Position numbers and translations under genes: made by a program. This document shows, piece after piece, positions 4,854-31,530 of a stretch of 64,000 nucleotides of DNA. The DNA is from a virus (Duplodnaviria; Heunggongvirae; Uroviricota; Caudoviricetes). Every line of letters begins with the position of its first letter. The stretch's first letter is position 1. A model generated the notes under the pieces. The model saw only the letters and a program-made list of their open reading frames with translations, ran no database searches and had not been told where the DNA came from. The stretch lies in IMG/VR virus record IMGVR_UViG_3300027759_003944, one strand, 5' to 3'.

Positions 4854-4883
4854 TTGACCTGTGGCATAGCAATGCTATATACT
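4854..4883 (+). promoter_or_regulatory. sigma70-like promoter (TTGACC-N16/18-TATATACT) upstream of rubrerythrin gene
   Basis: TTGACC at 4854-4859, TATACT at 4878-4883, then RBS ATAGGAG and ATG 4910. Confidence 0.5.
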
Positions 4884-4909: not shown

Positions 4910-5371
4910 ATGAGTATCACAATTAAAAATCTTGAAGAGGCCTTGGCCGGAGAGAGTCAAGCACACATCAAATATCGTTATTTTGCACGTATCGCCAGAG
5001 CCGAAGGCCACGAAGAAGTGGCTCGTCACTTTGAGCAAACAGCAGACCAAGAACTACAACATGCCTGGGGTCATTTGGAATTGCTGATTGGCAAGCCTTC
5101 AACTAAAGAATGTTTGCAAATGGCCATTGACGGCGAAACATACGAATTCACCACAATGTATCCTACATTTAAAGAACAAGCCGCACAAGAAGGTCACACA
5201 GCAGTCCAAGAGTTTCAAGAACAAATTGAAGAATCAATTGAACACGCTGAAGAATTCAAAGCAGTATTGGCCAAAGCAGAACTTCGTTTTGCCGCGTTAG
5301 CCAAGATTGAAAAGCGGCATGCAGAAGCATATCAATCCAAATTGGATTCAATCACCTTTCCAGTAATTTAA
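4910..5371 (+). CDS. rubrerythrin/ferritin-like diiron protein
   Basis: ExxH pairs (EAHIKYRYF..., EGHEEVARHFEQTADQELQHA) typical of the rubrerythrin four-helix bundle; no C-terminal rubredoxin domain in this ORF. Confidence 0.65.
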   Translation: MSITIKNLEEALAGESQAHIKYRYFARIARAEGHEEVARHFEQTADQELQHAWGHLELLIGKPSTKECLQMAIDGETYEFTTMYPTFKEQAAQEGHTAVQEFQEQIEESIEHAEEFKAVLAKAELRFAALAKIEKRHAEAYQSKLDSITFPVI

Positions 5372-5384
5372 TAGGAGAACAAAA

Positions 5385-5515
5385 TGGAACATGTTTGTAT
5401 AGTATGTGGTCATGTACATGACGAAGCCACCGAAGGCGTTTGGGATGAACTTCCCGAAACATTTCTCTGTCCCGAATGTGGTTGTGGCAAAGAAGAATAC
5501 ATCGACGTAGCGTAA
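5385..5515 (+). CDS. rubredoxin-like small protein (43 aa)
   Basis: MEHVCIVCGHV...FLCPECGCGKEEY: CxxCG...CPxCG rubredoxin knuckles; RBS AGGAGAA 8 nt upstream; not in ORF track because it is under 60 aa. Confidence 0.7.
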
Positions 5516-5628: not shown

Positions 5629-5703
5629 ATGAAATGGACTACACCATCAGCAAGCGACATGCGTTTCGGATTTGAAATTACCATGTACATTGCAAATCGT
5701 TAA
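5629..5703 (+). CDS. small ORF (24 aa, MKWTTPSASDMRFGFEITMYIANR) with strong RBS
   Basis: AAGGAG 7 nt upstream of ATG; ends at the terminator hairpin; coding status uncertain. Confidence 0.3.
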   Translation: MKWTTPSASDMRFGFEITMYIANR

Positions 5704-5706
5704 ACA

Positions 5707-5728
5707 AAAGGGCCGAAAGGCCCTTTTC
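5707..5728 (+). terminator. rho-independent terminator
   Basis: AAAGGGCC-GAAA-GGCCCTTTTCTC hairpin plus T-tract. Confidence 0.7.
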
Positions 5729-5730
5729 TC

Positions 5731-5759
5731 TTGACACACAATGGATTCTTTGTTATACT
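5731..5759 (+). promoter_or_regulatory. consensus sigma70 promoter TTGACA-N17-TATACT
   Basis: TTGACA 5731-5736, 17-nt spacer, TATACT 5754-5759, immediately after the terminator. Confidence 0.65.
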
Positions 5760-5784: not shown

Positions 5785-5952
5785 ATGACTGAACCTAAAA
5801 AATTTACCGATGCGTTGAAAGACGCCCTGGCCAAAAAACATGCGGCCCAACATCCTGATGCCAAAAAAGGCAAGAATGGAAAAACCAAACCATCTGGCAC
5901 TCCTGTAATTGGGGGTAGACCTGTGCAACGCACAGTGGGACGCGGCGGATGA
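5785..5952 (+). CDS. hypothetical Lys/Ala-rich small protein (55 aa)
   Basis: ATG 5785 inside track ORF 5731-5952; ATGA overlap with next gene. Confidence 0.4.
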   Translation: MTEPKKFTDALKDALAKKHAAQHPDAKKGKNGKTKPSGTPVIGGRPVQRTVGRGG

Positions 5953-6239
5953 GCAACGAACAAGCCCGATTTATCAATTCACGACGACGTCACAAAAATG
6001 ATGTTGCTGTGGCCAGACAAGTCAAGATTGCCCGGGCAGCCGGTACACCTGTTGATGCCGCACACCGGTTTGTCAAACGTCATGCCCTGGACTGTGGCAA
6101 CCCTCGATGTTTCTTGTGTGGCAATCCGCGCAAGACACACAAGGATCGATTGACCCAGCAAGAAAAACGCCTGTTTCAAGACCTAGATCGCACAACAGAC
6201 AAGCATTCAAACGGATTATCAACCAAGGAAGAACCATGA
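5949..6239 (+). CDS. hypothetical basic protein with CxxxxC...CxxC motif (possible zinc ribbon/DNA-binding)
   Basis: CGNPRCFLCGNPRK; highly basic N-terminus; ATGA overlap with downstream omega-like gene. Confidence 0.45.
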   Translation: MSNEQARFINSRRRHKNDVAVARQVKIARAAGTPVDAAHRFVKRHALDCGNPRCFLCGNPRKTHKDRLTQQEKRLFQDLDRTTDKHSNGLSTKEEP

Positions 6240-6502
6240 AGCACCCAGCAGATAGAACAGCAGGCCTCAACTCAGAACTAGCAGTGGAAATGATTGGCAA
6301 CCGATACAATTTGATCCTAGCCGGTGCTCGCCGCATGAGAGAACTCAGTCGTGGTGACTTGCCTAAAATCACTCTCAAGTTTCCACATAGCCCCGGCGTG
6401 ACAGCCATGTTGGAAATCGAAGCAGGCAAGATTGGCAAAGACTACATCTATCGTGAAACTGAAGTTCAACCTCGACGCCGCAACAAACAACAACCCTTGT
6501 AA
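6236..6502 (+). CDS. RNA polymerase omega-subunit (RpoZ/Rpb6-fold) homologue, 88 aa
   Basis: EMIGNRYNLILAGARRMRELSRG...VTAMLEIEAGKI aligns with the E. coli RpoZ core [24 protein letters not shown]...VIALREIEEGLI; RBS AAGGAAG upstream. Confidence 0.65.
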   Translation: MKHPADRTAGLNSELAVEMIGNRYNLILAGARRMRELSRGDLPKITLKFPHSPGVTAMLEIEAGKIGKDYIYRETEVQPRRRNKQQPL

Positions 6503-6504
6503 TT

Positions 6505-6978
6505 GTGGAAGAAAGCAACAGCGCCAAGGGACGTGACAGTTTTGATGTAGAAACTGGCAACACCTTGGTGCATTTCTTCAACCGCAATATCACACCCTAT
6601 GCCACCAGCACCTTAGGTCCCAAGTTTGATCTAGTACCAGTCACACAGCAAAAAGATCTCATGATCAACCATGCCAGGATGTATGCCCAGCAAGAGTATG
6701 ACAGAATCATGGAACTGGTCACAGTGTTGCAAAAACAAGCAGACGACATCAAGCGCAGATTGGACGTCACAAATCTAGTGCATGCGGCCGTGTACCAATT
6801 CAGTCCTGTGATGGGCAATACATATTGGTTGGCATGGGACCGACGCCGGCAACATACCTTGTTGACACCGCATGGTCCCAATGATTGGAGTTCCTCAGCA
6901 CCCGAGGATTACGAGTACCAAGCACAGGTCCGGTACATGGGCGATCATACCTGGCAAGAAGTTGCAATAGATTTTTAG
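6505..6978 (+). CDS. hypothetical protein (GTG start at 6505 per track; true start uncertain)
   Basis: 157-aa open frame following omega-like gene. Confidence 0.4.
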   Translation: MEESNSAKGRDSFDVETGNTLVHFFNRNITPYATSTLGPKFDLVPVTQQKDLMINHARMYAQQEYDRIMELVTVLQKQADDIKRRLDVTNLVHAAVYQFSPVMGNTYWLAWDRRRQHTLLTPHGPNDWSSSAPEDYEYQAQVRYMGDHTWQEVAIDF

Positions 6979-7002: not shown

Positions 7003-8457
7003 ATGCTGACTAACACACACACAGACATTCTAGTTCTTAGTTGTCCGTTGACAGAAACTGGATCACCCATGCATGCTGGAGCAGTTTTGAAATCCATTGC
7101 CAACAAAGCTGGATTTTCTTGTACGGTGGTGGATCTCAACTTCTTGACATTAAAATGGCTACAGTCGCGTAAGCATAACTCCAACTTAAATTCGGCCACG
7201 ATAAGATCATTTTTTTGGAACGGTAAAAGAAATCATCAAACCCAAGAAGTTATTGATCAGTTCACACACATGGTATTGGAAATTATCAACAAGTACCAAC
7301 CAAAAATACTAGCACTTAGTGTTTTTACTGATTATTCTCGTCCTGCTGGCAAACTGATTTCAAATATAGTGCGCCAGCACTTGCCAAATATAAAAATAAT
7401 CATGGGCGGAGCTGGTATTGTAAACGCAGATGCTGAAGATTCTTCCGGCCACCCGGTTGCACAACCTGGACAAATTAGTTTTGCAGAAAAATTGTTGCGT
7501 AACAAGGAAATTGATTTTTATATCCAAGGTGATGCTGAACATGCATTTCTTGAGTTTCTTAAAGGGAATTATGATTTTGTGGGTATTAATCAGCCCACCT
7601 GGCAACAGTTGACCAACAGTGACCTTTTGACTCTTGAATATCCTGATTACAGTGATTATGATTGGTCCATGTATCATGAATTGGAAATTGGGATCAATGG
7701 CAGTCGAGGGTGTGTAAGACAGTGTAGATTTTGTGATTACATTACTACGTGGAAAAAATATACCTGGAGAACAGGCGAAAACATATTTAAGGAAATGTTG
7801 TATCAATACCAGCGCTATAATATAAGTTTCTTTCATTTTACTGATAGCTTGCTCAATGGAAATATGGCTGAATTTAAAAACTTAATAACTTTGCTGGCTG
7901 AACATAATACCACTCATCCTGATCATTTATTGTCTTGGGGTAGTTTTTTGATAATAAAATCTCCTGCACAATTTGATGACGAGTTATGGCGTCTTACAAA
8001 AATCAGTGGATGTAAATGGCTATGGATTGGATTGGAATCACTAGTTGAAAAAGTTAGATTTGACATGAACAAAAAATTCACCAATGCGGACGTGGATTTT
8101 TGTATAGAAAAAATAATAAAATACGATATCCATACGTTTTTTTTACTTTTTGTAGGATACCCTACTGAAACACAAGAACATATTGAGCAGTCAATACAAT
8201 GGCTCAAGGATCACCAACATCAGCAACAATATTTTGATTTCTTTTTTAACGAAACCATGGCACTGTTAAATGGAGCATGGCTTGAAAAAAATAAACATGT
8301 GTATAAAATACAATTGTTAGATCCGACCAATACTTATTCATGGGTATCGCCTGAATCCAATCTAGCACTACGCAAACAAAGATCCGAATTTCTTAGAAAT
8401 GCTGCCAAATCTCTTGGCTACACTGTGTACACACAAGAAATAGATATCAACATATAA
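7003..8457 (+). CDS. B12-binding-domain radical SAM protein (class B rSAM, methyltransferase-like)
   Basis: N-terminal Rossmann-like B12-binding-type region (KILALSVFTDYS...KIIMGGAG) then CVRQCRFCDY = CxxxCxxC; AT-rich composition distinct from flanks. Confidence 0.6.
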   Translation: MLTNTHTDILVLSCPLTETGSPMHAGAVLKSIANKAGFSCTVVDLNFLTLKWLQSRKHNSNLNSATIRSFFWNGKRNHQTQEVIDQFTHMVLEIINKYQPKILALSVFTDYSRPAGKLISNIVRQHLPNIKIIMGGAGIVNADAEDSSGHPVAQPGQISFAEKLLRNKEIDFYIQGDAEHAFLEFLKGNYDFVGINQPTWQQLTNSDLLTLEYPDYSDYDWSMYHELEIGINGSRGCVRQCRFCDYITTWKKYTWRTGENIFKEMLYQYQRYNISFFHFTDSLLNGNMAEFKNLITLLAEHNTTHPDHLLSWGSFLIIKSPAQFDDELWRLTKISGCKWLWIGLESLVEKVRFDMNKKFTNADVDFCIEKIIKYDIHTFFLLFVGYPTETQEHIEQSIQWLKDHQHQQQYFDFFFNETMALLNGAWLEKNKHVYKIQLLDPTNTYSWVSPESNLALRKQRSEFLRNAAKSLGYTVYTQEIDINI

Positions 8458-8497: not shown

Positions 8498-8526
8498 TTG
8501 ACTAAAAATAGCCGATCTGCTATAAT
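8498..8526 (+). promoter_or_regulatory. sigma70 promoter TTGACT-N17-TATAAT
   Basis: Shares CGATCTGCTATAAT core with promoter at 11730; followed by RBS AAAGGAG and ATG 8552. Confidence 0.6.
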
Positions 8527-13391: not shown

Positions 13392-13560
13392 ACTTTGGTT
13401 GGTATTTGCCATTCTTGCTGTGTTGATCCATTTGGGTATCACAACCTGGAGGCGACTGGAAGGCCGGGAACAATGGGCATTGACAAAATCTATTACATAT
13501 AGTATAATTGTTGCATTGCTGGCTGTGCTGGCAATGGCTGTGATTGTTGTTTTATTCTAA
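13384..13560 (+). CDS. small two-TM membrane protein (58 aa)
   Basis: MIRLWLVFAILAVLIHLGITTW...LLAVLAMAVIVVLF; overlaps upstream stop. Confidence 0.4.
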   Translation: MIRLWLVFAILAVLIHLGITTWRRLEGREQWALTKSITYSIIVALLAVLAMAVIVVLF

Positions 13561-18764: not shown

Positions 18765-19477
18765 AGCAGTTAATTACAGGCGGATGCAGTTTTAGCGAAT
18801 GTTGCGGTCATGCTGGTACTTGGCCTCGTCACCTGTCAACTGCATTATATGACTACGAACATGTTAGTACAGCAATGGGCAGTCAAGGCAATGGTTTAAT
18901 CAGTCGCAAAGTGATATACCAGGTTACTGAAACATTAAAGCATACAGCCGCCCGAGATATCCTGGTGGGCATCATGTGGTCAGGACCTGATAGACATGAC
19001 TTTTATCAGTTAGGCAACCGACAGTTCGACAACCAAGACGGTTGGATGGAGAATCCCACACGTTTTGTGCCTAACGGGCAAGGTGCCTGGACCATTGTTA
19101 GTTCCGGTTGGCGTATGCCTGAATCGGCTAATTACTTTGTAAACTTTCATGATTTCATCGGGCAATACATTTACACATTAGAGCACATATTACGCACCCA
19201 ATGGTTTTTAAAATCTGCAGGTGTTAGATATTTCATGAGTACGTATACCAGTGCTGTGCTGCCTGAGATTGCACGAACACACAATGACACAAGACATCTG
19301 TATGAACTGGTTGATACTGATACGTTTTTGCCTGTGACTGGCGAGTATGAATGGTGCAGAGATCATTCAGGATTGCCTTTTCCCGTACCTACAGATCCGC
19401 ACCCTGGTGTGGAACAACATCAAGCATTTGTCAACCAAATCATCCTTCCTTATTTGAAAGAAAGAAACTTAGCATGA
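18761..19477 (+). CDS. hypothetical protein (238 aa; possible SGNH-type hydrolase, weak)
   Basis: ITGGCSFSE near N-terminus. Confidence 0.35.
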   Translation: MKQLITGGCSFSECCGHAGTWPRHLSTALYDYEHVSTAMGSQGNGLISRKVIYQVTETLKHTAARDILVGIMWSGPDRHDFYQLGNRQFDNQDGWMENPTRFVPNGQGAWTIVSSGWRMPESANYFVNFHDFIGQYIYTLEHILRTQWFLKSAGVRYFMSTYTSAVLPEIARTHNDTRHLYELVDTDTFLPVTGEYEWCRDHSGLPFPVPTDPHPGVEQHQAFVNQIILPYLKERNLA

Positions 19478-20442
19478 CATTTTTAGTAACAGGCGGCCTA
19501 GGCCTTATTGGACACAACATAGTGACACGATTGCAAGCATATGAGTCGGTTGTGGTTGTAGACAATAAAACCACATATGGTATTATTCCTCAAGCAGAAA
19601 TTGATTATCTAATGACTGAGCGCCGAAAGAAGATTGCCGAGGGAACACCAATCTATACAATTGATATTGTAGACGCTGACAACGTTGATTTTGTGATGAG
19701 CAAACACAAACCCAAAGTTGTGATTCACTGTGCCAGTTTTCCCCGACAGAAAGTTGTCAATGCCAACCCTGCGCTGGGTGCAGACGTAATGATGCGTGGT
19801 TTGATCAACTTGCTTGAGAGTGCCAAAAAACACAAAATTGAACGGTTTGTGTACATCAGTAGCAGTATGGTGTACGGAGACTTTGAAGACCAAGTGTTGG
19901 AAGATGATCTATGCCGTCCGCAAGGGCAGTATGGAATAATGAAACTATGTGGAGAAGACCTTGTTAAAGATTATAGCCGCCGTTGTGGCTTTGAGTATGT
20001 TATTATCCGCCCCAGTGCTGTATATGGGCCACTTGATGTTGAAGACCGAGTTGTTGCCAAATTCATGCTCACAGCAATGCGCGGCGGAGTGCTCCGAGTT
20101 AATGGAGCAAACGAAACACTAGACTTTACCTATGTGGATGATGCCGCAGATGGTATTGTGTCAGCAGCCACACGTATCATGTGCCGCAACATGACATTCA
20201 ACATCACCAAGTCACACTCAGTAAGTCTGTTACAAGCGGCAGAAATGATTGTGAAAATTGTGGGCAAGGGTACAATTGAAGTGCGGGACAAAGACACAGA
20301 CTTTCCCAGCCGCGGTGCGCTAAACATTGATCGTGCTCGAACCATCTTGAGTTTTGATCCAAAAGTAGACGTAGAAGAAGGATTCCAAAAGTATTATGAG
20401 TGGCTTAACAGTTCCGTTTACTGGACTACAAAAACAGTATAA
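19474..20442 (+). CDS. NAD-dependent sugar epimerase/dehydratase (SDR family)
   Basis: VTGGLGLIGHNIV Rossmann GxxGxxG; YxxxK-type region; 322 aa. Confidence 0.75.
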   Translation: MTFLVTGGLGLIGHNIVTRLQAYESVVVVDNKTTYGIIPQAEIDYLMTERRKKIAEGTPIYTIDIVDADNVDFVMSKHKPKVVIHCASFPRQKVVNANPALGADVMMRGLINLLESAKKHKIERFVYISSSMVYGDFEDQVLEDDLCRPQGQYGIMKLCGEDLVKDYSRRCGFEYVIIRPSAVYGPLDVEDRVVAKFMLTAMRGGVLRVNGANETLDFTYVDDAADGIVSAATRIMCRNMTFNITKSHSVSLLQAAEMIVKIVGKGTIEVRDKDTDFPSRGALNIDRARTILSFDPKVDVEEGFQKYYEWLNSSVYWTTKTV

Positions 20443-21475
20443 CAATCTTCGCACAGAGATCTTGGATGCGACAGATACAGTGTTGCGTTCAGGGTCTCTC
20501 ATGAGTGGCAATTACACTTATGAGTTTGAAGACTGGCTGGCTCGACGCAATCATCAACCCTATGCTGTGACCTGCCACTCAGGTACACAGGCTCTGGAGA
20601 TCATCGCCGAGTGGTATCGAACTGGTTGGAATACTACTCCCACTGTGGCTGTGCCCACGCTGACTTATCCAGCCACACTCAACGCATTTGTGCGAGCAGG
20701 CTGGAACTTGCACATTGTGGACACTGATCGATATGGTGTGATGGACATGACCAAACTTGCTCACGTGGCAGACATTCACGCTATATGCAGTGTGGGTCTG
20801 TATGGGCAATCTGTACAGCGCATGATGCAGAATTTATGGACGTTGACACACCCTGTGATTGAGGATGGCGCACAACATTGGCTCAGCAATGATTGCAAAC
20901 GCATAGGCGACTGTGCCATCAGTTTTGATCCCACAAAGAATCTGGCCAACTACGGCAATGGTGGCGCTGTGATCACTGCCAATCGTGAGTTGATGGAATT
21001 TGCTAGAAACTGGGTCAGTAACGGCAAGCACACAAAACATGCTGAAACAGGCACCAACAGTAGAATGAGTGAAACGGATTCGGCGCAGATGTTGGTCAAG
21101 ACTCGTTACATTGATCAGTGGCAACAACGTAGACGCACCATTGCTCAACACTGGATGGAGATGTTGAAACAAAATCCTGATATCACTTGTTTAATTGATG
21201 ACACCAACTTTGATCAACACTGCTTTCACAAGTTTGTAATACATACAGACAACCGAGATATACTACAACGTAATCTTGCCTTGCGTGGCGTTGAGACCAA
21301 AGTGCATTATGCAACACCCATGCATGAGTTGCCAGCATATCAACACTATCCCGGACCAGACTTGCTGAGTGCTGGCAGCAGTCTAGCACGTAGATGTCTT
21401 TCACTTCCGATCTACCCTGAACTGTCAGACTTGGAAGTTGAATACGTTATTGATTCTTTGCTCGATTGTGTCTAA
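20396..21475 (+). CDS. DegT/DnrJ/EryC1/StrS-family PLP-dependent sugar aminotransferase
   Basis: N-terminal LQKQYNNLRTEILDATDTVLRSGS..., SGTQALEIIA, later lysine-containing region; 359 aa; start may be later than 20396. Confidence 0.7.
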   Translation: MSGLTVPFTGLQKQYNNLRTEILDATDTVLRSGSLMSGNYTYEFEDWLARRNHQPYAVTCHSGTQALEIIAEWYRTGWNTTPTVAVPTLTYPATLNAFVRAGWNLHIVDTDRYGVMDMTKLAHVADIHAICSVGLYGQSVQRMMQNLWTLTHPVIEDGAQHWLSNDCKRIGDCAISFDPTKNLANYGNGGAVITANRELMEFARNWVSNGKHTKHAETGTNSRMSETDSAQMLVKTRYIDQWQQRRRTIAQHWMEMLKQNPDITCLIDDTNFDQHCFHKFVIHTDNRDILQRNLALRGVETKVHYATPMHELPAYQHYPGPDLLSAGSSLARRCLSLPIYPELSDLEVEYVIDSLLDCV

Positions 21476-22092
21476 TGTACAAAGTTTATATTATTTCATT
21501 AATAAATGCAAATGCAGGCATTCACTCACAATCAGCGTCACGTAGATATCATAATACAATAAAATCCTGTCAGGAATATCAATGGCCGGTTGAGCTTTTT
21601 AATGCTGTTAATGGATACAACTTAACAGAAAATGTATGGAGTGAGTACCATTTACTTCCACCAAAAAAATCAACAAAGCATTTGGATAAATTTGGAAATT
21701 TACCCGGGGCACACGGATGTTTTTTAAGTCACTTTACTCTGTGGAATCAATGCATAAGTTTAAATGAACCAATTGTAATTTTAGAAGACGATTCTGAAAT
21801 ATTGTCACCATTAACTGAAATTAGCACTGAGTTTGATTTGTTAAAATTAACACGCCCTTACGCTTTACATCAAAGTTCTAAACTAGGCACATGGTCTGCA
21901 GGTGCTTCTGCTTATTGGTTATCACCAATTGGAGCAAAAAAATTAGTAGAATTTTCGACTACACAAGGTCCAGGACATGCTGATAAATTAATGGGATCAA
22001 ATATTTTAAACTGGGGATACATACCATCCCCCATTGTAAAAATATCACCTACTAAAGGTAGTAGTACCAATCCAATCAATCATCCTTACTAA
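21475..22092 (+). CDS. glycosyltransferase family 25-like (LPS beta-1,4-galactosyltransferase-type)
   Basis: VYIISL...R, FNAVNG, GCFLSHFTLW, ILEDD motifs; AT-rich. Confidence 0.55.
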   Translation: MYKVYIISLINANAGIHSQSASRRYHNTIKSCQEYQWPVELFNAVNGYNLTENVWSEYHLLPPKKSTKHLDKFGNLPGAHGCFLSHFTLWNQCISLNEPIVILEDDSEILSPLTEISTEFDLLKLTRPYALHQSSKLGTWSAGASAYWLSPIGAKKLVEFSTTQGPGHADKLMGSNILNWGYIPSPIVKISPTKGSSTNPINHPY

Positions 22093-24293
22093 GGTACCAA
22101 ACTGCGTTTGACGAACGCATACGTGGCCAACCAATCCCACTCGTAACTCTTTTTCAGCGCCGCAAAGTCACCGCTGACTGAGTCATAGTACTCCACACCA
22201 TCTTCTGCACCTTTGCGACTCCATTGCCCTTCTGTGGTATCAACAGTGAGCCACCGGTTGAGTCTGTGCTCGCTTTCCACATCAGGCAAACTGGCTTTTA
22301 ATTTGAGCACTTCACGAAATGCAGTGCGCCAACACATCCAGTCCGAATCATGATACATGGCTGTGCCCGACACAATGGGCACAACTTCATGTGGTTGGTC
22401 CAGGGTAAAGTCTAATCCTTGCCCAGTATTCTCCAACACCAGCTGCTTGTTGTAAGCAATCATGGCCTGGTGTCCATATATCAATCCGTTCACAGGATTG
22501 TGTGCATGAAAGATATAGTGCTTGGGTTGTTGCATGCGATCCGGTTGCCAGGACCAGTCAAAATCTCTAGTGACTTCTAGTTTGGCAAACACAGCAAAAA
22601 ACCAAGGTGTAGTACTTTGTCTAGCAGCCGCTTGATATGCTGCCACACGACCATTCACACCCGACACATGATGCATGAGATTCTTATGATTTGCGTCGTG
22701 GGCTGTGTATTCCAAATGTTCAAAGTAAATTTCGGCATTTATTTCACCGTTGCTGATAAACACAATGTCTAATGGAGAGTCTTTCAACATGCGCTGTGTA
22801 CGATCTATATGAGCATAGTCATACAATTGTGTCTTTATGTAAGGAACAGCCACCCGGGGAACAACTACTGTGCCTGCACCACTCCCAACAGGCACAATGG
22901 TCTTGGTCTCTTGCCGCCATAATGGCACAGTCACTAGATTACCCTGTACATAGTCATGATTGGTAAAGGTGGCCACGGGGCCTGCCCAGTCAGTTGTTTT
23001 TACTGCATCTACTTGACTATCAGCACTATGCACAATCACTGGCATAGATCTACGTGGTACAGCGGTGTTGACAAAGTTCACATCATACCACTCTAGTAAC
23101 GCTTTCTTTTCAGCGCGGGCAGCAAATGTGGGTACATGCATGAAGAAGGTGTCTCCAAACTTTTCATTATCTGACTTGAACACATGCAACATTGTGGCCT
23201 GCCATTGTTCGGGGTGCCACGAAAAGTCAAAGACAGTGTAGTCGCAAATGCTTGAGCATATCCACACAAACTCATGTTCAGTGCCTATGCTCTTGGCAAT
23301 GCGTATTAGTGTATCTCGGTAGTTGTCAAAGTAACGCACAGTGCGTGTGGTGTTGGGAATTTGTCCAGCTGAGCCGCATAGGTGATCTATTTCGTAGATG
23401 GCTGTGGCATTGCTGGCAATTTTTGCACGTATCTGATCCACATACTTGATTTCTACAGCACCAGGTACTGTGTACACTGGACCACCTGTGCGTTGATGCT
23501 GAGTGGCAAATTGATATATGTACGGAGGATCGCCTGGGTCAGGCCTCCACGAAAAGTCCACTGTGGATTCATCTATGCTGTTGGGCACAGTCCAAGCAGT
23601 TCGATCTTCCGGCAACTCTGCACGTGGCCAGTTCACATACTTGCGTTCTGTAGCACCTGGCACATGATATTCCACTGTGGGCATTTTTTCTGCTGACCAC
23701 CATTGATTACCAAATACGTAAACATAAGGCGGGTCTCCAGGATCTGGACACCAACTACGGTCCCAGTTACACTCCACTAGAGTGTGCCAGCGACTGGCAT
23801 GTCGTTCAGGCAACCGTGCCTGTGGGTTGTCTATGTATTTGGTTTGTGTGGCTCCGGGCACATGATATTCCACAGTGGGCATCACCGTGCCAGGCCACCA
23901 TTGATTACCAAATACGTAAACATAAGGCGGGTCATGTGGATGTGGTGCCCAAGACGTATCAAATTCCGCGTCCTTTACTAAAAATTTGTAAGGTTTGAGA
24001 TGACTACGATTAAGAATTGTTTGAGCATGAAAGTGATAGTTGTCCACAGCACCTGTTCTTGGCACCAGATACGTGCCCGAATGATCATGCCATTGGCTGG
24101 GCCATGCATGAGTAAATTCGCTTTGCCATGGCACTGGTTCCCAAAGAAAATCAAAGCCAGTATAATCCGCTAAGTATGTGATCCACCAGAAATATCTAGT
24201 GCGACTCAGACTCTGCGCATGTTCAAATGACTCAGCAGGCCGTTCGTGTGCAAACACTCCGGGTTTTTTACCAGAATAAAATACATCAAACAT
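22089..24293 (-). CDS. 734-aa protein with about six tandem roughly 45-aa repeats (F/D-x-SW-x-PDPGDPPYVYVFGNQWW...TVEYHVPGA)
   Basis: Three near-identical and three degenerate repeat units visible in translation; no recognisable catalytic motif. Confidence 0.6.
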   Translation of the reverse strand: MFDVFYSGKKPGVFAHERPAESFEHAQSLSRTRYFWWITYLADYTGFDFLWEPVPWQSEFTHAWPSQWHDHSGTYLVPRTGAVDNYHFHAQTILNRSHLKPYKFLVKDAEFDTSWAPHPHDPPYVYVFGNQWWPGTVMPTVEYHVPGATQTKYIDNPQARLPERHASRWHTLVECNWDRSWCPDPGDPPYVYVFGNQWWSAEKMPTVEYHVPGATERKYVNWPRAELPEDRTAWTVPNSIDESTVDFSWRPDPGDPPYIYQFATQHQRTGGPVYTVPGAVEIKYVDQIRAKIASNATAIYEIDHLCGSAGQIPNTTRTVRYFDNYRDTLIRIAKSIGTEHEFVWICSSICDYTVFDFSWHPEQWQATMLHVFKSDNEKFGDTFFMHVPTFAARAEKKALLEWYDVNFVNTAVPRRSMPVIVHSADSQVDAVKTTDWAGPVATFTNHDYVQGNLVTVPLWRQETKTIVPVGSGAGTVVVPRVAVPYIKTQLYDYAHIDRTQRMLKDSPLDIVFISNGEINAEIYFEHLEYTAHDANHKNLMHHVSGVNGRVAAYQAAARQSTTPWFFAVFAKLEVTRDFDWSWQPDRMQQPKHYIFHAHNPVNGLIYGHQAMIAYNKQLVLENTGQGLDFTLDQPHEVVPIVSGTAMYHDSDWMCWRTAFREVLKLKASLPDVESEHRLNRWLTVDTTEGQWSRKGAEDGVEYYDSVSGDFAALKKSYEWDWLATYAFVKRSLVP

Positions 24294-25470
24294 GATTAGA
24301 ATTGACGAAATCTATAACAATACATTTTGGCCTTGGATTAAGAAACATCATCCTGGAGTGAGATTATGGTGGTGCGAACCATTCGGTAGGACTGATCCTG
24401 ACAGCTTAGTTAATTATGGCAGTGATGACATACATGAACACAATTATACACTGTTATGGGACCAAGAGCCTATTCATTTGAACGTGCATCTACCCACTTT
24501 TGAATCTGTGGCGGAGAAAAATTCTGATTTTGCCAAGACTTGGCAACATAAACAACGTAACCAAGAGCACCTACACAACAAACTGCGCAAAATAACTGAT
24601 ATGCCACCTTGGATTCTTAAAGAAAAAAAATTCGGATCAATCATCACCAGCGAACGTGACAGTGACACTGTTGACGCTGTATGCAAAAAATTTGGTTGGC
24701 ATAGTTATTATTATTTTTTTCATGGCTGGGCTGCTTTAGACTGGTATCGAGGATATGACAAGACTTTTTTGATCACTCCCTGGCAAGAAAGAACAATTAC
24801 CCAAACATTCCTGGCACCCAATCGAATTGTGGCAGGAGCACGTGAGCACAGATTAGAAATGTTGTATTGGATATTTAAACTTGGTATGAACAACAATCAT
24901 GTATCTTGTCCTGCTGTATGTCCAGCAGAAAACATTGCCATACTAGATGCCGTACAGCCTCTTAGAGACCAGTACCCTGACATTGAAACAGTGTTTGCCC
25001 AACAGGCATTGCCCCGAAACTTTGAGGGGGAAATTGATCATCCCATGCATTCATGTTGGCTCAGTTTGTTTGATGAATCAGCTGAAAGTTTGTTATACTT
25101 GGTTACTGAAACTGTGGCTACAGGTCGCAGACATCACTTGACTGAAAAAACATTCAAACCCATTGCCTTGGGTATGCCGTTTATGATTGTGGGCACACAG
25201 GGCAGTTTGCGGTATTTGCGCAGTTATGGTTTCCGAACATTTGGTGACCTGTGGGATGAAAGTTATGATGACGAACCAGATGACTCAAAGCGCATAGAAA
25301 AAATTGCACAGGTATTGAAGCAGTTAGAACAAAGTGATCGCCAGGCCATATTTGAATCTGCACATGATGTTATTGCGCACAATTGGAATCATTTTTACAA
25401 CGGCGGTTTTGAACAAATACTATGGCAAGAATTGCAGGACATGTTGAATGAGCTTGAATTTAATAGCTGA
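24292..25470 (+). CDS. GT10-like (alpha-1,3-fucosyltransferase-like) glycosyltransferase, paralogue 1
   Basis: C-terminal block LSLFDESAESLLYLVTET...TEKTFKPIALGMPFMIVG...GFRTFGDL resembles the FucT FxLxFENS...YVTEK...P...VDDF motif. Confidence 0.5.
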   Translation: MIRIDEIYNNTFWPWIKKHHPGVRLWWCEPFGRTDPDSLVNYGSDDIHEHNYTLLWDQEPIHLNVHLPTFESVAEKNSDFAKTWQHKQRNQEHLHNKLRKITDMPPWILKEKKFGSIITSERDSDTVDAVCKKFGWHSYYYFFHGWAALDWYRGYDKTFLITPWQERTITQTFLAPNRIVAGAREHRLEMLYWIFKLGMNNNHVSCPAVCPAENIAILDAVQPLRDQYPDIETVFAQQALPRNFEGEIDHPMHSCWLSLFDESAESLLYLVTETVATGRRHHLTEKTFKPIALGMPFMIVGTQGSLRYLRSYGFRTFGDLWDESYDDEPDDSKRIEKIAQVLKQLEQSDRQAIFESAHDVIAHNWNHFYNGGFEQILWQELQDMLNELEFNS

Positions 25471-26629
25471 TCAAGTCACCCGGGGTAGAATATATCCTGC
25501 ACTGGCTCGGCACCAGGCTGCGCCATACACTCAAGGCTGGCGTGAGTTTGGACAACATTGGCCCAACACTATACCCATACGACTGCAAGAATACTGTGAC
25601 CATCACGGTGTCAAACTAAACATCACGGATATTGATTCTGAGTGGCCAGCTGATGCATTTTACCCTGTGGGACTAGGCTTCTTTAATTTTGACATTGATT
25701 ACTTTGAACTAATGCCTGAGCGCATACGCACAGGTTTATTCTTTGGCGATGTGCGTGTGTTGTTTTACTATCATGAAGGCGATAACCCGTTCCGTATCAA
25801 AACTAGACTTGATGACCTATGTACCAAGCACAATTTGCGCGATGACTGCTATGTATTTGTGAGTTCTAATTCAGCGGCCAGTAGTATTCCACGTTTTGTT
25901 GCATTTCAAGACAGTGAACTTTGGTACTGGCAGCGCAATCATGAATCACCAGCATTGAACATACACCATGAACCTAGAGAGCGTGATTTTACTGTGTTGA
26001 ACAGACTGCACAAAAGCTGGCGTGCCTTGATCATGGCAGATTTAAAAAGTCTTGACATACTGAATAACTCATACTGGAGCTATTGCGAGCCAGGCGAATT
26101 TGCGGATTCGGACTGTCCAATAGAAATTGATGCCATTGCAGGTTTACGCACTGCTACTGAGGAGTTTTTGAAATCAGCACCTTATGTGAGTGATGAGTTG
26201 GACAATGATCAGCGAAACAATCACAGCACACTGGTTGCCAAGTATCATGTCAACAGCTATTGCAACATTGTGGTTGAAAGTCAATTTGATTACGATCAAA
26301 GTGGTGGCGTACTCTTAAGTGAAAAAACATTCAAACCTATCAAACATGGGCAACTGTTTTTTATTGCAGGTGCTGCTGGTAGTTTGCAAATGCTACGTGA
26401 CTTGGGATATCGTGTGTTTGATTCAGTATTGGACAACAGTTACGATTTAGAACCTGATCACACACAACGCTGGATGGCGCTGACAAGATCCATTTATTTT
26501 GCTCAACAGCAATTACCACAACTTTTTGAGCAGGCCAGAGCTGACATAGAACACAACCAGCAGTTATTTCAAGCCATAAAGACTGAACGTTTAAATAGCT
26601 TGATCAAGGACATCAATGAATCCCATTAA
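25448..26629 (+). CDS. GT10-like glycosyltransferase, paralogue 2
   Basis: IVVESQF...SEKTFKPIKHGQLFFIAG...GYRVFDSV; homologous to 24292 gene. Confidence 0.5.
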   Translation: MSLNLIADQVTRGRIYPALARHQAAPYTQGWREFGQHWPNTIPIRLQEYCDHHGVKLNITDIDSEWPADAFYPVGLGFFNFDIDYFELMPERIRTGLFFGDVRVLFYYHEGDNPFRIKTRLDDLCTKHNLRDDCYVFVSSNSAASSIPRFVAFQDSELWYWQRNHESPALNIHHEPRERDFTVLNRLHKSWRALIMADLKSLDILNNSYWSYCEPGEFADSDCPIEIDAIAGLRTATEEFLKSAPYVSDELDNDQRNNHSTLVAKYHVNSYCNIVVESQFDYDQSGGVLLSEKTFKPIKHGQLFFIAGAAGSLQMLRDLGYRVFDSVLDNSYDLEPDHTQRWMALTRSIYFAQQQLPQLFEQARADIEHNQQLFQAIKTERLNSLIKDINESH

Positions 26630-27656
26630 CTCTTACACCAGCTGGCAGCCACTTGAAGAAGTCATTGTGGGCCGTGCGTACACACCAGACTATTTTGACT
26701 TTATTGAAAATGCACAGGTACGCAATCAACTGCAACAAATACTGTCAGAGACCGAAGAAGACCTGGCCAACTTGCAAAAGACCATTGAGACTTATGGCGC
26801 TCGAGTGCGTAGACCTGACTTGCCCAACAAACATCACTTTCAACGTGATCAAATGAAAGGCAACGGCGCACCACTGCCGCCACTTACACCAAGAGACTGG
26901 CAGATCACACTGGGTGATCAACTGTTGCGTGTGCTGGCCATGCCAGAACTGGATGGTTTGTGTGCCGAGTATGAAGCAGCACAGCCCGGCAGTGTGATCA
27001 ACCCACATGGTCCCACCGGCTGGGACGAGAACTGTATTCTCAATCAAGCATCAGCATCATGCATTGTGCGTGTGGGCCGTGATGTATTTTTTGACAACTC
27101 TGACTTCCTGCGTCCAGGCCAAACTCGTTGGATTGTGGACAATGTATTAGGTCCAGAATATCGCATACACGAAGCCATAACAGATGGACATGGAGATGCT
27201 GTGTTTGCTATATTGAAGCCGGGGGTGTTGTTGTCAAGCAAACACGATGTAAACTTGAACTTGGCAGCAGACTTTCCGGGATGGGACGTTTGTAAAATTT
27301 GGGACAGCAGTATCTGGGCTGCCATGGAAGTAGGCAAGTTTAAATATGAACAATCACCAGGTGCTTGGTATGTACAAGGACAAACCCCCACACCCGAGTT
27401 CACAGACTTTGTTGACACTTATCTAACCAAGTGGACTGGCTTTGTTGCAGAAACTGTGTTTGATGTCAACTGCTTGGTGCTGGATGAGTCACACGTTATA
27501 TTCAGTGCTTACAATCGAGAAGTCTTTGACTATTGCCGTCGGCATCGGATAGAACCCATCATCAGTGAACTGCGTCACAGTTACTTCTGGGATGGTGGTA
27601 TCAGTTGTTGCACACAAGACATTCGACGTCGCGGCGGCCTGGAAACTTACCTTTAA
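26616..27656 (+). CDS. amidinotransferase-family protein (AGAT/StrB-like)
   Basis: C-terminal WDGGISCCTQDIRRRGGLETYL matches the amidinotransferase catalytic-Cys tail GGG(F)HC(V)T(L)D(V)RRG(T)L(Q)SY. Confidence 0.55.
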   Translation: MNPINSYTSWQPLEEVIVGRAYTPDYFDFIENAQVRNQLQQILSETEEDLANLQKTIETYGARVRRPDLPNKHHFQRDQMKGNGAPLPPLTPRDWQITLGDQLLRVLAMPELDGLCAEYEAAQPGSVINPHGPTGWDENCILNQASASCIVRVGRDVFFDNSDFLRPGQTRWIVDNVLGPEYRIHEAITDGHGDAVFAILKPGVLLSSKHDVNLNLAADFPGWDVCKIWDSSIWAAMEVGKFKYEQSPGAWYVQGQTPTPEFTDFVDTYLTKWTGFVAETVFDVNCLVLDESHVIFSAYNREVFDYCRRHRIEPIISELRHSYFWDGGISCCTQDIRRRGGLETYL

Positions 27657-29137
27657 CTGTAAACCGTTACACCATACAACATTTCAAATCTATCAGCGTC
27701 TGCACGGTCATTGACCATGGGCTCTCCACGTATGTTCAAACTGGTGTTGAGCAACATAGGACATCCTGTTTGGGCATACCATGCTTCCAACAATTGTCTT
27801 ATTCCCGACCCATCCGCCGCAACAGTTTGAACTCTACTGGTACCATCAACATGACATATAGCAGGGTAAAGATCAGGATTCCGGCAATGGGCAACTGACT
27901 GCATATAACTGTGAGTGTGCCAACCAGGCTGCATATCAAAGTAGTCATCAGCCATCTCAGCAAGAATGACTGGAGCAAAAGGTCTGAATTTTTGTCTGCG
28001 TTTGATTGCATTTACTTGATCCTTGATTTTTGCACCACGGGGGTCAGCAAGTAGGCTTCGGTTACCCAACGCCCTGGGCCCAAATTCAGCGCGACCATTA
28101 GCAACTCCAACAATACCATCGTGAAGTAAACCGCGGACAATATTGTCAACAGGATAAGCACCAGAGATATTGTGACCAAGGTAAGCATTGCGCCAATGCA
28201 GCCTTTTGCCATACGCAAGAGCAGCGGCTCCAAGACTTGACCCTGCGTCTCCTGGGCAGGGCATGATCCAGATGTTTTCAAAGTAATTTCCTAGTCGTCT
28301 ATTGGCCAAGCAGTTGAGTGCAACACCGCCTTGATACACAAGATTGGTGCTCCACTCAAAATCTCTAGCACGTTGCATAACATTGCCAATCAAGCGTTCC
28401 AGCAGGGTTTGAGCACTGGCGGCGATATCTTCATTGCTGAGACTGCCCATGAATTCATCATCAAACCCTGTGTGCAAGTTTTGTCCAAACTCTATTTCAT
28501 CTGGATCACGTATTAGCACTGCTTCCATCACATGATGATAACTGTCTCTGCCATAAGCAGCCATACCCATGGTGATGTATTCTTCGTCTAGTGGGTGTAG
28601 GCCCACACGCTGAGTAATTGCACTATAAAACAGGCCCAGGCTGTGCGGATACTTTTGTCCCCACAGTCGTCGGTATCTTGCTTGTCCTTGCTTGTCATAT
28701 TCTGCTCCCCAGATTGTGATTGTGTCCCACTCGCCTATGGCATCGATTACCACAACTGTGGCACGGTCAAATGGGCTGGTTTGAAAACCGCCAGCGGCAT
28801 GACTCAAATGATGGCTGTGACAACTGTAGGGCGTGTACGAAAACCATCCTCGCAGTTGTTGTTTTAAAATTTGGCCTGTGGTCAACTTGTTCCACTCTAT
28901 GCCTTGACCTGCATACCACTGGCGAAGTTGTTTTTTCCAGGGTGTTTCGTAGTAGGCCACATGATCTACGGCAAGATTTGCGTCACATGCGTCCCAGATT
29001 AGGCCAAGGTTGATGTCAGCATCATTCTTCTTCTTGCTGTAGCGTTCTGCATGTCCAGCAAATACAATGTCACCTCGTGAGTCAATCACTGTGGCTGCGG
29101 CGTCATGAAAGCCGGCACTGATTCCTAGGATATTCAT
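27653..29137 (-). CDS. carbamoyltransferase (NodU/CmcH family)
   Basis: N-terminal MNILGISAGFHDAAATVID... typical of NodU/CmcH O-carbamoyltransferases; 494 aa. Confidence 0.7.
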   Translation of the reverse strand: MNILGISAGFHDAAATVIDSRGDIVFAGHAERYSKKKNDADINLGLIWDACDANLAVDHVAYYETPWKKQLRQWYAGQGIEWNKLTTGQILKQQLRGWFSYTPYSCHSHHLSHAAGGFQTSPFDRATVVVIDAIGEWDTITIWGAEYDKQGQARYRRLWGQKYPHSLGLFYSAITQRVGLHPLDEEYITMGMAAYGRDSYHHVMEAVLIRDPDEIEFGQNLHTGFDDEFMGSLSNEDIAASAQTLLERLIGNVMQRARDFEWSTNLVYQGGVALNCLANRRLGNYFENIWIMPCPGDAGSSLGAAALAYGKRLHWRNAYLGHNISGAYPVDNIVRGLLHDGIVGVANGRAEFGPRALGNRSLLADPRGAKIKDQVNAIKRRQKFRPFAPVILAEMADDYFDMQPGWHTHSYMQSVAHCRNPDLYPAICHVDGTSRVQTVAADGSGIRQLLEAWYAQTGCPMLLNTSLNIRGEPMVNDRADADRFEMLYGVTVYS

Positions 29138-29231: not shown

Positions 29232-30260
29232 TCATGTCAATCTCCTTATTTGCTGCTCAGCATAGTCTGCATCGCACCAGCGATACTCATATGTAGCCTC
29301 TGCCGTGCTGGTGCGTATTTTATATACATCAAGGTGTGGCGCCAGTCGATCCCAAATTTCTTTATAGTTGCGTGTGCCAAAACTTCGTTGCAAATCTACT
29401 TGTGCAACCTTGGGATGGCCGATAGTTAAACTTTGGTCCTCCGGATCAAATCCATTGGATACAAGCCATGTTCTAAACTCTGCCAACTTCTTTATTTGCC
29501 ATTCATGTGCGCCTGTTTCATTGCCCCATTCTATATCAAAATCTCCAGCAGCTTCTGTTTGTGATCTCAACCCGGTTGTGACTAATTTGTCAACATCTTG
29601 ATCTTCGTCAATGAAAACCTCCCAATGATGCTTGCCCACGGATTTGTTTACTCCCACATACACACCACCTAGATCTCGATTGATAGTTTCTACACCAAAC
29701 AGTTCATAATCTTTTGCATCCAATGCAAATCTTGGTGCATTGAGCCAGCACATGAGTTGACTGGGTCTACGCCATTCAGGTGCTTGTACCAGTTTGCGCA
29801 TGCTGAGTATGAGACTTTCGTATTCATGACACAGCAAATTAAGTTGCCGTATGTGCCAGCGAATTGTGGAATCAGCTCGATGATAATAATCACTTATACC
29901 ACCTGACCATCCTTGCAAATCTTCAAAATATCTGTGCAATTTATTCATATGGTCATGATTTATATCTAGGTTGCTTTGTATGGTATTGGCAGTATCAAAA
30001 TGGTCGTTGATGTGATAGCCTAGATCACTGTTGTTAATGGCCTCAATGCTATCATTTATGCATTTGCAAATGTATTCAGCCGTGCGTTGACTTTCTGTCC
30101 AACCTAGCCAGCAGTAATTTTTTTCCAAATGCAAGTTGTTGCGTATGATATCATTCAATGCTCCGAGCCATTTGCGACTGAGGCTATTATCATAAACATC
30201 AATATACAGTTTGTGTTCAGTATCTTTGCCACGTAGAGTTATTTCAATTTGATCAAGCAA
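29232..30260 (-). CDS. hypothetical protein (342 aa)
   Basis: ORF, head of the minus-strand rSAM operon. Confidence 0.5.
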   Translation of the reverse strand: MLDQIEITLRGKDTEHKLYIDVYDNSLSRKWLGALNDIIRNNLHLEKNYCWLGWTESQRTAEYICKCINDSIEAINNSDLGYHINDHFDTANTIQSNLDINHDHMNKLHRYFEDLQGWSGGISDYYHRADSTIRWHIRQLNLLCHEYESLILSMRKLVQAPEWRRPSQLMCWLNAPRFALDAKDYELFGVETINRDLGGVYVGVNKSVGKHHWEVFIDEDQDVDKLVTTGLRSQTEAAGDFDIEWGNETGAHEWQIKKLAEFRTWLVSNGFDPEDQSLTIGHPKVAQVDLQRSFGTRNYKEIWDRLAPHLDVYKIRTSTAEATYEYRWCDADYAEQQIRRLT

Positions 30261-31530
30261 TGTTGTTCCACCATTCTAGCACCGCAGGACGATCAGCAAG
30301 TATTTGTTCCATTGTAATCTTCTGTGTGCGTATACTTTCTAATTGTAACACACGAGCACGACCTTTTGCAATACCAGCCGCATATTGATCAGGCCATTGT
30401 TCTTCAAATGTGGGTCGTGTTTTTAACTGTGTCAGCATGTCACGCAACGCACCATCCGTTTCAGGCACAAGTTCATCAATCCAAGGTTCTAATAAATGTC
30501 TAGGCAAGGCCAATGGACTCATCACAATGTTAGGCGAGAATGAAAACATTACTTTAGCCAGGACTTCGACTCCATATTCTTGGGCAAGTTGTCTAATGCG
30601 TGTAACTTCGAACATTCCGGGCAGAGTGAGCGTAAAGTCAATTCGTACTTGACGTCGGTTACGTTGGATCGCAACTGCCGCACCAAAATTGTCAAGCCAT
30701 TGATCATAGTCAAGGCCTGTTCTAATGTACTCGCCAATTGCGCCTGTGCCGTCGAGACTTGCGCATATCTGCCAATCGCGCAGCCCGCTGAGAATATCGC
30801 GATATAAGTTAACACCTCGATAATCCACTCTGGATAAATTTGTATTGTATCTAGCATATACTCGTGGCCCGTCCCCTAATTCAACTATGCGGCGCATGTA
30901 ACGCCAATGTTGTTCGTACATCAAGGGTTCGCCACCTACCCAGTATACTTCTTCAACACGATGCTGTTCCACGGCTGCTGAAAACTCTGCTTCTATTTGG
31001 CTGTCTTGAAATGCTGTGATACTTGTTCTTACTTCTGGACGCATCCATGAGTTTTTTGGATTTGACCAGTCAACCATGTTCTGTTGCTTCTGCTCTGTTT
31101 CCCAACTACTACTCAGCATGTCACCGCACGTTCTACATTTGAAATTGCAAAGATTACTAAATCTATAATCCCAACTCACAGGCTGCATTGTGGTGCGTCC
31201 TGCGGTGTCAGTGGTTTCCCAAATGTCAGGGTACTTATGCTTGAACAATTGCCAAAAATATGTGCGGTAAACATCAGTGTTCAACAGTTTGTCATTGCAC
31301 ACTTCGCACTCGGGCAGTGTTTCTCCAGCCATCATGCGGCTGCGCACACTCATCATGTGTGGAGAATTCCAATGTTCATCCAGTGTGATGGGAATGTATT
31401 CACCAGTGCCTGCGGCGGTGTCTATGTACTGTTCAAAGTTCTGTGCAGGTTCACGTGATGCACAACACATACGTCGTTCTGTTTGTGGACTCAAGTAGGT
31501 ATGCACCCAAGGTGCCATGCACAAGCTCAT
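30253..31530 (-). CDS. radical SAM protein, paralogue A (N-terminal Cys-rich domain + CNFKCRTCG core)
   Basis: CxxxCxxC in MoaA/anSME-like context CN(F/L)xC(x)(Y/T)C; GGEPL, YNTN, GEYIRTG motifs shared with paralogues. Confidence 0.7.
   Translation of the reverse strand: MSLCMAPWVHTYLSPQTERRMCCASREPAQNFEQYIDTAAGTGEYIPITLDEHWNSPHMMSVRSRMMAGETLPECEVCNDKLLNTDVYRTYFWQLFKHKYPDIWETTDTAGRTTMQPVSWDYRFSNLCNFKCRTCGDMLSSSWETEQKQQNMVDWSNPKNSWMRPEVRTSITAFQDSQIEAEFSAAVEQHRVEEVYWVGGEPLMYEQHWRYMRRIVELGDGPRVYARYNTNLSRVDYRGVNLYRDILSGLRDWQICASLDGTGAIGEYIRTGLDYDQWLDNFGAAVAIQRNRRQVRIDFTLTLPGMFEVTRIRQLAQEYGVEVLAKVMFSFSPNIVMSPLALPRHLLEPWIDELVPETDGALRDMLTQLKTRPTFEEQWPDQYAAGIAKGRARVLQLESIRTQKITMEQILADRPAVLEWWNNIA

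Follow-up and report, generated by a model that had tools for sequence, protein, structure and literature searches.

A small open reading frame in a stretch of phage DNA resembles rpoZ, the gene for the omega subunit of bacterial RNA polymerase (RNAP). Is it a genuine omega and, if so, what use would a phage have for one? Omega is the least understood subunit of bacterial RNAP, with roles in beta-prime assembly, in ppGpp site 1 and in sigma competition. Phages retarget the host RNAP with sigma factors, with small proteins that bind it and by covalent modification. The stretch analyzed (termed the window) is 64,000 nt in length, and positions given below without another reference are window positions.

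The omega open reading frame and its operon

The open reading frame at positions 6236–6502 (+ strand) encodes an 88 amino acid protein with a pI of 10.1, MKHPADRTAGLNSELAVEMIGNRYNLILAGARRMRELSRGDLPKITLKFPHSPGVTAMLEIEAGKIGKDYIYRETEVQPRRRNKQQPL. Both the ORF list and the sequence show it as it was given in the original prediction. The features of the omega region are:

5706–5729, + strand: hairpin with T-run (aaaagggcc-gaaa-ggccctttt), taken directly from the sequence and not listed by the consensus scan
5731–5759, + strand: sigma-70-type promoter, TTGACA-17 nt-TATACT with a TG extended -10 (11 of 12 matches)
5785–5952, + strand: first cistron, a very basic 55 aa protein (pI 10.6) with a GRGG end, from the ORF list and sequence
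5949–6239, + strand: second cistron, zn96, a basic 96 aa protein of pI 10.4 (phrog_4499, E-value = 7.9e-9, 36.9 bits)
6225–6231, + strand: Shine-Dalgarno sequence AAGGAAG, inside the zn96 coding sequence and 4 nt before the omega ATG; kept in the related loci L001, L006, L008 and L009
6236–6502, + strand: third cistron, the phage omega (RpoZ) homologue, from profile, PDB, fold and alignment matches; its parts are an N-terminal extension with the TAGL motif (aa positions 1–13), the omega core (14–66) and a basic PRRR tail (71–88)
6505–6978, + strand: fourth cistron, a DUF2452-like protein of 157 aa (PF10504, 32.6 bits)
7003–8457, + strand: radical SAM protein with a B12-binding-like N-terminus (PF04055, 57.2 bits)

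Several JGI gene calls use a longer reading of the omega frame, 131 aa from an ATG at position 6107. This reading is wrong because the extension contains in-frame stops in two relatives (L007 and L009) and shows pN greater than pS. The overlapping zn96 frame displays pS of 0.29–0.77 and pN of 0.02–0.17, i.e. purifying selection acts there on zn96. The 88 aa omega gene is real and is under strong purifying selection: dN/dS is 0.009–0.14 at dS of 0.55–1.4 among six close relatives, and the window and L006 proteins are one residue apart, yet 39% of synonymous sites differ.

The original prediction had claimed an RpoZ signature, to be checked by a search with PF01192 and by alignment of the core with bacterial RpoZ. 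The PF01192 (RNA_pol_Rpb6) profile gave 33.2 bits against a gathering score of 26 (E-value = 5e-8), and the equivalog model TIGR00690 (rpoZ) gave 31.9 bits against 23.6 (E-value = 1e-7); both are above the cut-off. The subfamily model NF001579 gave 18.2 bits, below its cut-off of 58. A phmmer search of all PDB chains matched 21 distinct omega sequences in gap-free alignments over residues 14–78, the best being the omegas of V. cholerae (E-value = 4e-8) and E. coli (E-value = 1e-5). The core, N22-R23-Y24-x-L26-I27-L28-A29-x-A31-R32-R33-x-R35 together with E60-I61-E62-x-G64, aligns to E. coli omega (EIEEG at the second motif) without gaps. Residues N22, R23, Y24, L26, L28, R33, R35, E36, L37, E60, E62 and G64 are invariant in 55 family members, and these are the conserved core of cellular omega. 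The signature is thus far beyond chance, and neither outcome that the original prediction had named as a refutation (no significant HMM match, or a core that cannot be aligned) arose.

An AlphaFold2 model from the 55 members has a mean pLDDT of 81.5, with values above 86 over residues 11–70, and shows helices at positions 13–20, 23–38 and 53–62. When this model was compared with the PDB by Foldseek, the top 50 matches were all omega chains of RNAP. The closest of these, from E. coli and Vibrio, superimpose with an rmsd of 1.2–2.0 Å over about 59 residues and a TM score of 0.6–0.76. Profile, alignment and model matches together show the gene to be a true homologue of the bacterial omega subunit, the predicted omega fold included.

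The hairpin at 5706–5729 separates the preceding pqqA unit, which it terminates, from the omega operon, whose 5′ limit it forms. A consensus sigma-70 promoter had been placed upstream of omega; it is present with 11 of 12 matches, but about 480 nt and two cistrons separate it from the gene. The 55 aa protein has no Pfam match, but its homologues occupy the corresponding place in 13 of 80 IMG/VR loci and in L001 and L006–L013. Its stop codon overlaps the zn96 start as ATGA (5949–5952). The translational coupling of omega to an upstream basic protein with a Cys motif was read correctly as well: the zn96 stop (TGA, 6237–6239) overlaps the omega start (ATG, 6236–6238) behind AAGGAAG, zn96 carries a Cys/His cluster, and related loci also keep the start-stop overlap.

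The DUF2452 gene is a variable neighbour outside the conserved module; it is found in L001, L006, L008 and L009 and not in L003, L007, L011 or L013. The radical SAM gene that follows is the final gene ahead of the next promoter (8498–8526). A metallophosphoesterase is also encoded downstream of omega in the window, along with the DUF2452 and B12/radical SAM proteins.

Seven near-consensus sigma-70 promoters are found on the + strand between positions 4854 and 13508, starting at 4854, 5731, 8498, 9202, 9864, 11730 and 13480. They show 10–12 of 12 matches, a spacer of 17 nt in six and 18 nt in one, and a TG in four. The one at 13480–13508 is a perfect TTGACA-17-TATAAT. Each is located 30–70 nt upstream of a gene start, all within 9 kb. 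The cluster looks like an early region dependent on host RNAP; an early-gene block, as this part of the window had been called, is what we infer from these seven promoters.

The unit upstream of the hairpin contains pqqA (5629–5703, + strand), which encodes a 24 aa PqqA precursor peptide, MKWTTPSASDMRFGFEITMYIANR (PF08042, 40.4 bits against 21.1). The gene is alone, with no pqqB-E nearby. At the DNA level the pqqA region is 83% identical to a region annotated as "hypothetical protein" in Melnitz, a phage of Methylophilales (OM43). The peptide and the Melnitz match are hints of a methylotroph host and of phage manipulation of PQQ supply.

The early regions of the clade are also rich in stress and redox genes. 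Rubrerythrin and rubredoxin are encoded at 4910–5515 of the window, and there are genes of this kind in L003 (2499–4578) and downstream of omega in L013 and L023. The early regions of relatives encode AhpC and an AhpF-like thioredoxin reductase, and a pair of DSP-type phosphatase and AAA_33 genes follows omega in most.

Phage origin and distribution

The source of the DNA had been taken to be a phage. This is borne out by strong PHROG matches (e.g. phrog_11259 with 242 bits and phrog_11311 with 186 bits), a structural protein shared with jumbo phages, IMG/VR contigs of 110–364 kb and a tRNA cluster. The structural protein (202 aa, 47992–48600) has matches of 42%–57% identity in Sinorhizobium phage Phosso, Agrobacterium phage Atu_ph07 and Rak2-like jumbo phages; certain records label the protein "structural" or "baseplate". 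A MoxR-type ATPase gene shows DNA similarity to the PA5oct group. Four tRNA genes, for Pro(GGG), Gly(GCC), Thr(GGT) and Arg(TCG), are present in 1.7 kb at positions 187–1803. Judged by these matches, the window is from a jumbo myovirus of the same kind as Rak2, Atu_ph07 and PA5oct.

The tRNA genes are interspersed with an RNaseH-like gene (277–759) and a fatty-acid desaturase gene (1009–1710), the desaturase being 90%–94% identical in related loci. At the other end of the window, a 5066 aa open reading frame (48772–63972, − strand) adjoins the structural/baseplate protein at 47992–48600 and a tail-fibre-like protein at 46161–47963 (phrog_14394, virion structural). It has no Pfam domain above the cut-off; CBM_5_12 is sub-threshold. 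Between these ends, about six radical SAM paralogues form a run (30253–39060, − strand). In three of them (31527–32738, 32735–33994 and 33991–35253) the SPASM domain is N-terminal to the radical SAM core, a reversal of the usual order. The flanks of the run (19351–29137 and 40114–41443) encode a carbamoyltransferase, DegT aminotransferases, an epimerase and glycosyltransferases.

The same omega is found on IMG/VR contigs of 110–225 kb and on metagenome contigs of 318–361 kb, where it is surrounded by many small open reading frames on the same strand. A profile-guided scan showed that at least 484 IMG/VR stretches encode omega relatives, on contigs of up to 364 kb. The family motifs were absent from all 185,579 species genomes of bacteria and archaea in two pattern scans. 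Because these species-genome scans found nothing, no donor lineage can be named.

Of 50,697 phage records (INPHARED), nine were matched by three tblastn queries, and eight of these are bacterial or contaminated DNA. The ninth is a weak match (E-value = 6e-4) to a human faecal contig of 4.4 kb, labelled "Bacteriophage sp." (MT839270.1). Candidate isolated phages with omega were rejected as bacterial DNA: Campylobacter phages A11a and A18a, Acinetobacter "phage" MD-2021a, two Salmonella WGS contigs and two 1.5-kb fragments. Both of the mislabelled-record contexts that were inspected show gmk-rpoZ-spoT. In A11a (L020, MG065691.1, 116234–122386) the DNA is 100% identical to the ligB-gmk-rpoZ-spoT region of E. 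coli; A18a (MG065686.1) has the same omega match. The "Acinetobacter phage MD-2021a" contigs (L109, CAKLQH020000003.1) are chromosomal, with pil genes, ispH and gmk-rpoZ-spoT.

The nearest omega relatives outside the family have 40%–50% identity and are metagenomic. Two of three contexts are phage-like (P0256 and P0257), and the third, L025/L026, is ambiguous. These last are ENA k141 contigs of 24–63 kb that encode a 75 aa omega-like protein (P0383, about 50% identical by way of its cluster representative P0255) among genes for a porin, a desaturase, AhpC, an aldolase, a Trp halogenase and TctA; the source may be a phage rich in auxiliary metabolic genes or a bacterium.

In 75 of the 80 viral loci (94%) the gene that immediately precedes omega is zn96. 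The invariant residues of its product are H39, D48-C49-G50, C54 and C57-G58-N59-P60-R61-K62, i.e. a pattern H..DCG.P.C..CGNPRK. Its metagenomic homologues comprise 2216 protein clusters, a wider family than that of omega, and phrog_4499 is a family with no assigned function. Weak tblastn matches are found in phiKZ-like Pseudomonas phages (PhiPA3 gp279, pPa_SNUABM_DT01). There is no Pfam, NCBIfam or PDB-profile match, and the AlphaFold2 model (pLDDT 60.5) is too poor for a fold search. Since zn96 is present without omega in L017–L019, and omega without zn96 in L021 and in five of the 80 loci (with examples in L041, L058 and L106), neither requires the other.

Downstream of omega, a DSP-type phosphatase is encoded in 55 of the 80 loci and an AAA_33 kinase in 30. 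In 13 of the 80, and also in L003, L004 and L023, an HD_4 hydrolase of the SpoT/RelA type (PF13328, 54.7 and 58.6 bits) is encoded no more than 5 kb downstream. Homologues of HD_4, DSPc and AAA_33 are absent from the 64-kb window. The hydrolase is linked to omega in a minority of loci, and the linkage may reflect a shared synteny of the early region.

Departures from cellular omega and the proposed role

The differences from cellular omega are at the two ends of the protein. The N-terminal M-A-R-V-T-V of E. coli omega aligns with T-A-G-L-N-S of the window protein, which has seven additional residues in front. The M-A-R motif of proteobacterial omegas with ppGpp site 1 is thus absent, with T-A-G aligned in its place. 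The position of Arg3 is occupied by Gly in 54 of the 55 members from the protein search and in every one of the 56 distinct proteins that the 80 best viral loci encode. In all but one of these 56 the motif T-[A/L]-G-L-[T/S]-[S/N]-E is found behind an extension of 5–18 residues, a length that depends on heuristically chosen start codons. Most of the contacts between E. coli omega and the ppGpp 5′ diphosphate at site 1 are made by Ala2 and Arg3 (PMC13192712, section 8), and the MAR motif is a marker of ppGpp-binding omegas (PMC6416229).

In the subclade of the window an Arg is conserved two positions ahead of the motif (D-R-T-A-G) and could stand in for Arg3. This Arg is mostly missing from the larger T-L-G subclade, so the picture is not uniform. 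At the C-terminal end most of the clade keeps a motif [D/E]-x-x-P-R-R-R. The last 18 residues have a median net charge of +3 compared with −2 in E. coli omega, and the median pI of the 55 members is 10.1 compared with 4.87. The genomic context differs as well: the gmk-rpoZ-spoT arrangement is absent, and the order in the window is sORF55-zn96-omega-DUF2452. Alignment across the whole clade shows loss of the Arg3 equivalent, gain of an N-terminal extension and a basic PRRR tail.

That the phage omega tunes the host RNAP, as suggested in the original prediction, is the hypothesis considered here. Among about 55 window open reading frames scanned there is no sigma factor and no RNAP large subunit, and the beta-prime motif DFDGD is absent from 1.02 Mb (the window and 108 related loci, which are parts of genomes). 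Jumbo phages without an RNAP of their own use the host core (PMC7598289). From the sigma-70 promoters, the absence of the beta-prime motif in these sequences and this precedent, we infer that the host sigma-70 holoenzyme reads the operon.

In the proposed process the host sigma-70 RNAP would transcribe the operon soon after infection. The phage omega would take the omega site on host beta-prime, by new assembly or by exchange, and an RNAP that carries it would have an altered regulatory surface. With the N-terminus buried behind the extension and Gly at the Arg3 position, ppGpp site 1 would be weakened or abolished, and loss of site 1 would uncouple phage transcription from the stringent response of the host. 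The basic tail and the coupled zn96 may supply a contact to nucleic acid or to a partner. In relatives, the nearby gene of alarmone-hydrolase type and the altered omega could act as a two-pronged evasion of the stringent response.

The change of the ppGpp-contact residues throughout the clade suggests a weakened site 1, the contacts being those described for E. coli. In E. coli, loss of site 1 alone gives partial relief, and the DksA-dependent site 2 would stay intact, which counts against a full escape from ppGpp by the omega change. The more distant omega-like genes (40%–50% identity) keep the start MAR[I/Y/L]TSE; P0256 and P0257, which are among phage-like genes, belong to these. Blindness to ppGpp therefore cannot account for all phage omegas.

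Weighing this, the phage omega probably binds host RNAP as an omega subunit. That it both binds and changes regulation of the enzyme has about an even chance. A change that concerns ppGpp specifically is a tentative proposal, more doubtful than a change in regulation as such. The overall explanation preferred here, a replacement of host omega with changed regulation and with ppGpp as the leading mechanism, appears evenly balanced between holding and failing. In its fullest form, a clade of freshwater jumbo phages would swap a core subunit by means of an early operon of omega and zn96, giving a host enzyme that is alarmone-blind and dedicated to the phage; this is speculative, and the weight is somewhat against it.

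Several other explanations have to be set against a replacement that alters regulation. The one that survives best, though unlikely, is that the protein is a plain assembly helper, i.e. extra omega would chaperone the folding of beta-prime and stabilise RNAP as host expression collapses, with regulation unchanged. Folding and assembly of beta-prime is the established role of omega (PMC5811629, PMC7598289), and the core motifs that face beta-prime are the best-conserved parts of the phage protein. A helper would however have no need for termini remodelled throughout the clade (T-x-G-L, PRRR, pI about 10) or for a 94% linkage to zn96, and rpoZ is dispensable in E. coli (PMC5811629).

Less likely again is a role as an adaptor, in which the basic tail and N-terminal extension would form a docking surface by which a phage factor, possibly zn96, steers RNAP to phage promoters. 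There is a precedent in GafA, which activates the genes of the Rhodobacter gene transfer agent (RcGTA) by direct contact with omega (PMC9638019). The position of zn96, translationally coupled and directly upstream in 75 of the 80 loci, and its basic character with a Cys/His cluster would suit such a factor. The loci that have one gene without the other (L017–L019 for zn96; L021, L041, L058 and L106 for omega) argue against it, as does the lack of a Pfam or PDB match and of a good model for zn96.

It is improbable that the phage protein is a dominant-negative omega that would bind beta-prime and disable host RNAP for host shut-off. Structurally altered omega variants can inactivate E. coli RNAP, and the divergent termini are compatible with such an action. 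However, the omega operon and six neighbouring units carry near-consensus sigma-70 promoters and no phage RNAP is seen in the 1.02 Mb of window and related loci, therefore the phage needs a working host enzyme.

A subunit of a multisubunit RNAP encoded by the phage itself is very improbable. Eukaryotic giant viruses do have RPB6 homologues in their own RNAPs, with weak Foldseek matches to the phage protein. The known multisubunit RNAPs of jumbo phages are without alpha and omega (PMC7598289), the window groups with phages of the Rak2, Atu_ph07 and PA5oct kind, and the 1.02 Mb of window and related loci contain no DFDGD motif. The least credible of all is that bacterial DNA or a host rpoZ was mis-binned as phage, in the way that eight of nine INPHARED records with an omega match are bacterial DNA, given that the locus has no gmk-rpoZ-spoT context, phage genes surround it on contigs of up to 364 kb and the family motifs are in 0 of 185,579 bacterial species genomes.

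Relation to known systems

Two UniProt entries ("uncultured Caudovirales phage") and many JGI calls have been named omega or RNAP automatically. Since the gene is already auto-annotated, the novelty is in recognising and explaining it and not in an unseen sequence. In the literature searched we found neither an account of a phage-encoded omega nor a report of a phage that supplies a replacement RNAP core subunit; a paper taken as the source of the two UniProt entries makes no mention of phage omega. If replacement of host omega is correct, omega would be the first core subunit of bacterial RNAP to be replaced by a viral version, and the case would be a natural experiment on omega function. Hundreds of natural variants, with the beta-prime-binding core kept and the ppGpp-contact N-terminus and the C-terminal tail rewritten, would serve as a testable probe of omega functions. 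The phage omega may also reveal a new phage route out of the stringent response.

Bacterial RpoZ (the closest solved are V. cholerae 9gdo_E and E. coli) shares family, fold and a similar size with the phage omega, with 41%–44% identity over the core (positions 14–66) and with NR[FY]xL[VI]L..A.RR.R and EIE.G kept. The phage omega differs in that it is outside a gmk-rpoZ-spoT operon, has T-[A/L]-G-L in place of MAR and is coupled to zn96. Its tail is basic (PRRR, pI about 10), whereas that of bacterial omega is acidic (pI 4.9). RPB6 of eukaryotic giant viruses is likewise virus-encoded and of the same superfamily, with weak Foldseek matches (E-value = 0.46 or worse). It belongs to a viral multisubunit RNAP, in contrast to the phage omega, which is accompanied by sigma-70 promoters and by no RNAP large subunits that could be seen.

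The GafA-omega pair of the Rhodobacter gene transfer agent (PMC9638019) resembles the present proposal in that omega serves an element of phage descent as its regulatory contact on host RNAP. That element encodes the activator and uses the omega of the host, whereas the present phage encodes omega itself. Sigma factors, gp39 of P23-45 (PMC3950348), Gp2 of T7 and P7 of Xp10 are early products that alter the host RNAP, as the phage omega would. They are accessory binders or sigma factors, whereas the phage omega is a core-subunit homologue. Phage alarmone hydrolases (SpoT/Mesh1-type HD, PF13328) and MazG are thought to counter the stringent response, as is proposed for the phage omega. Phage HD hydrolases have already been described. 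Alarmone hydrolases would lower the level of ppGpp, whereas the phage omega would act at its receptor.
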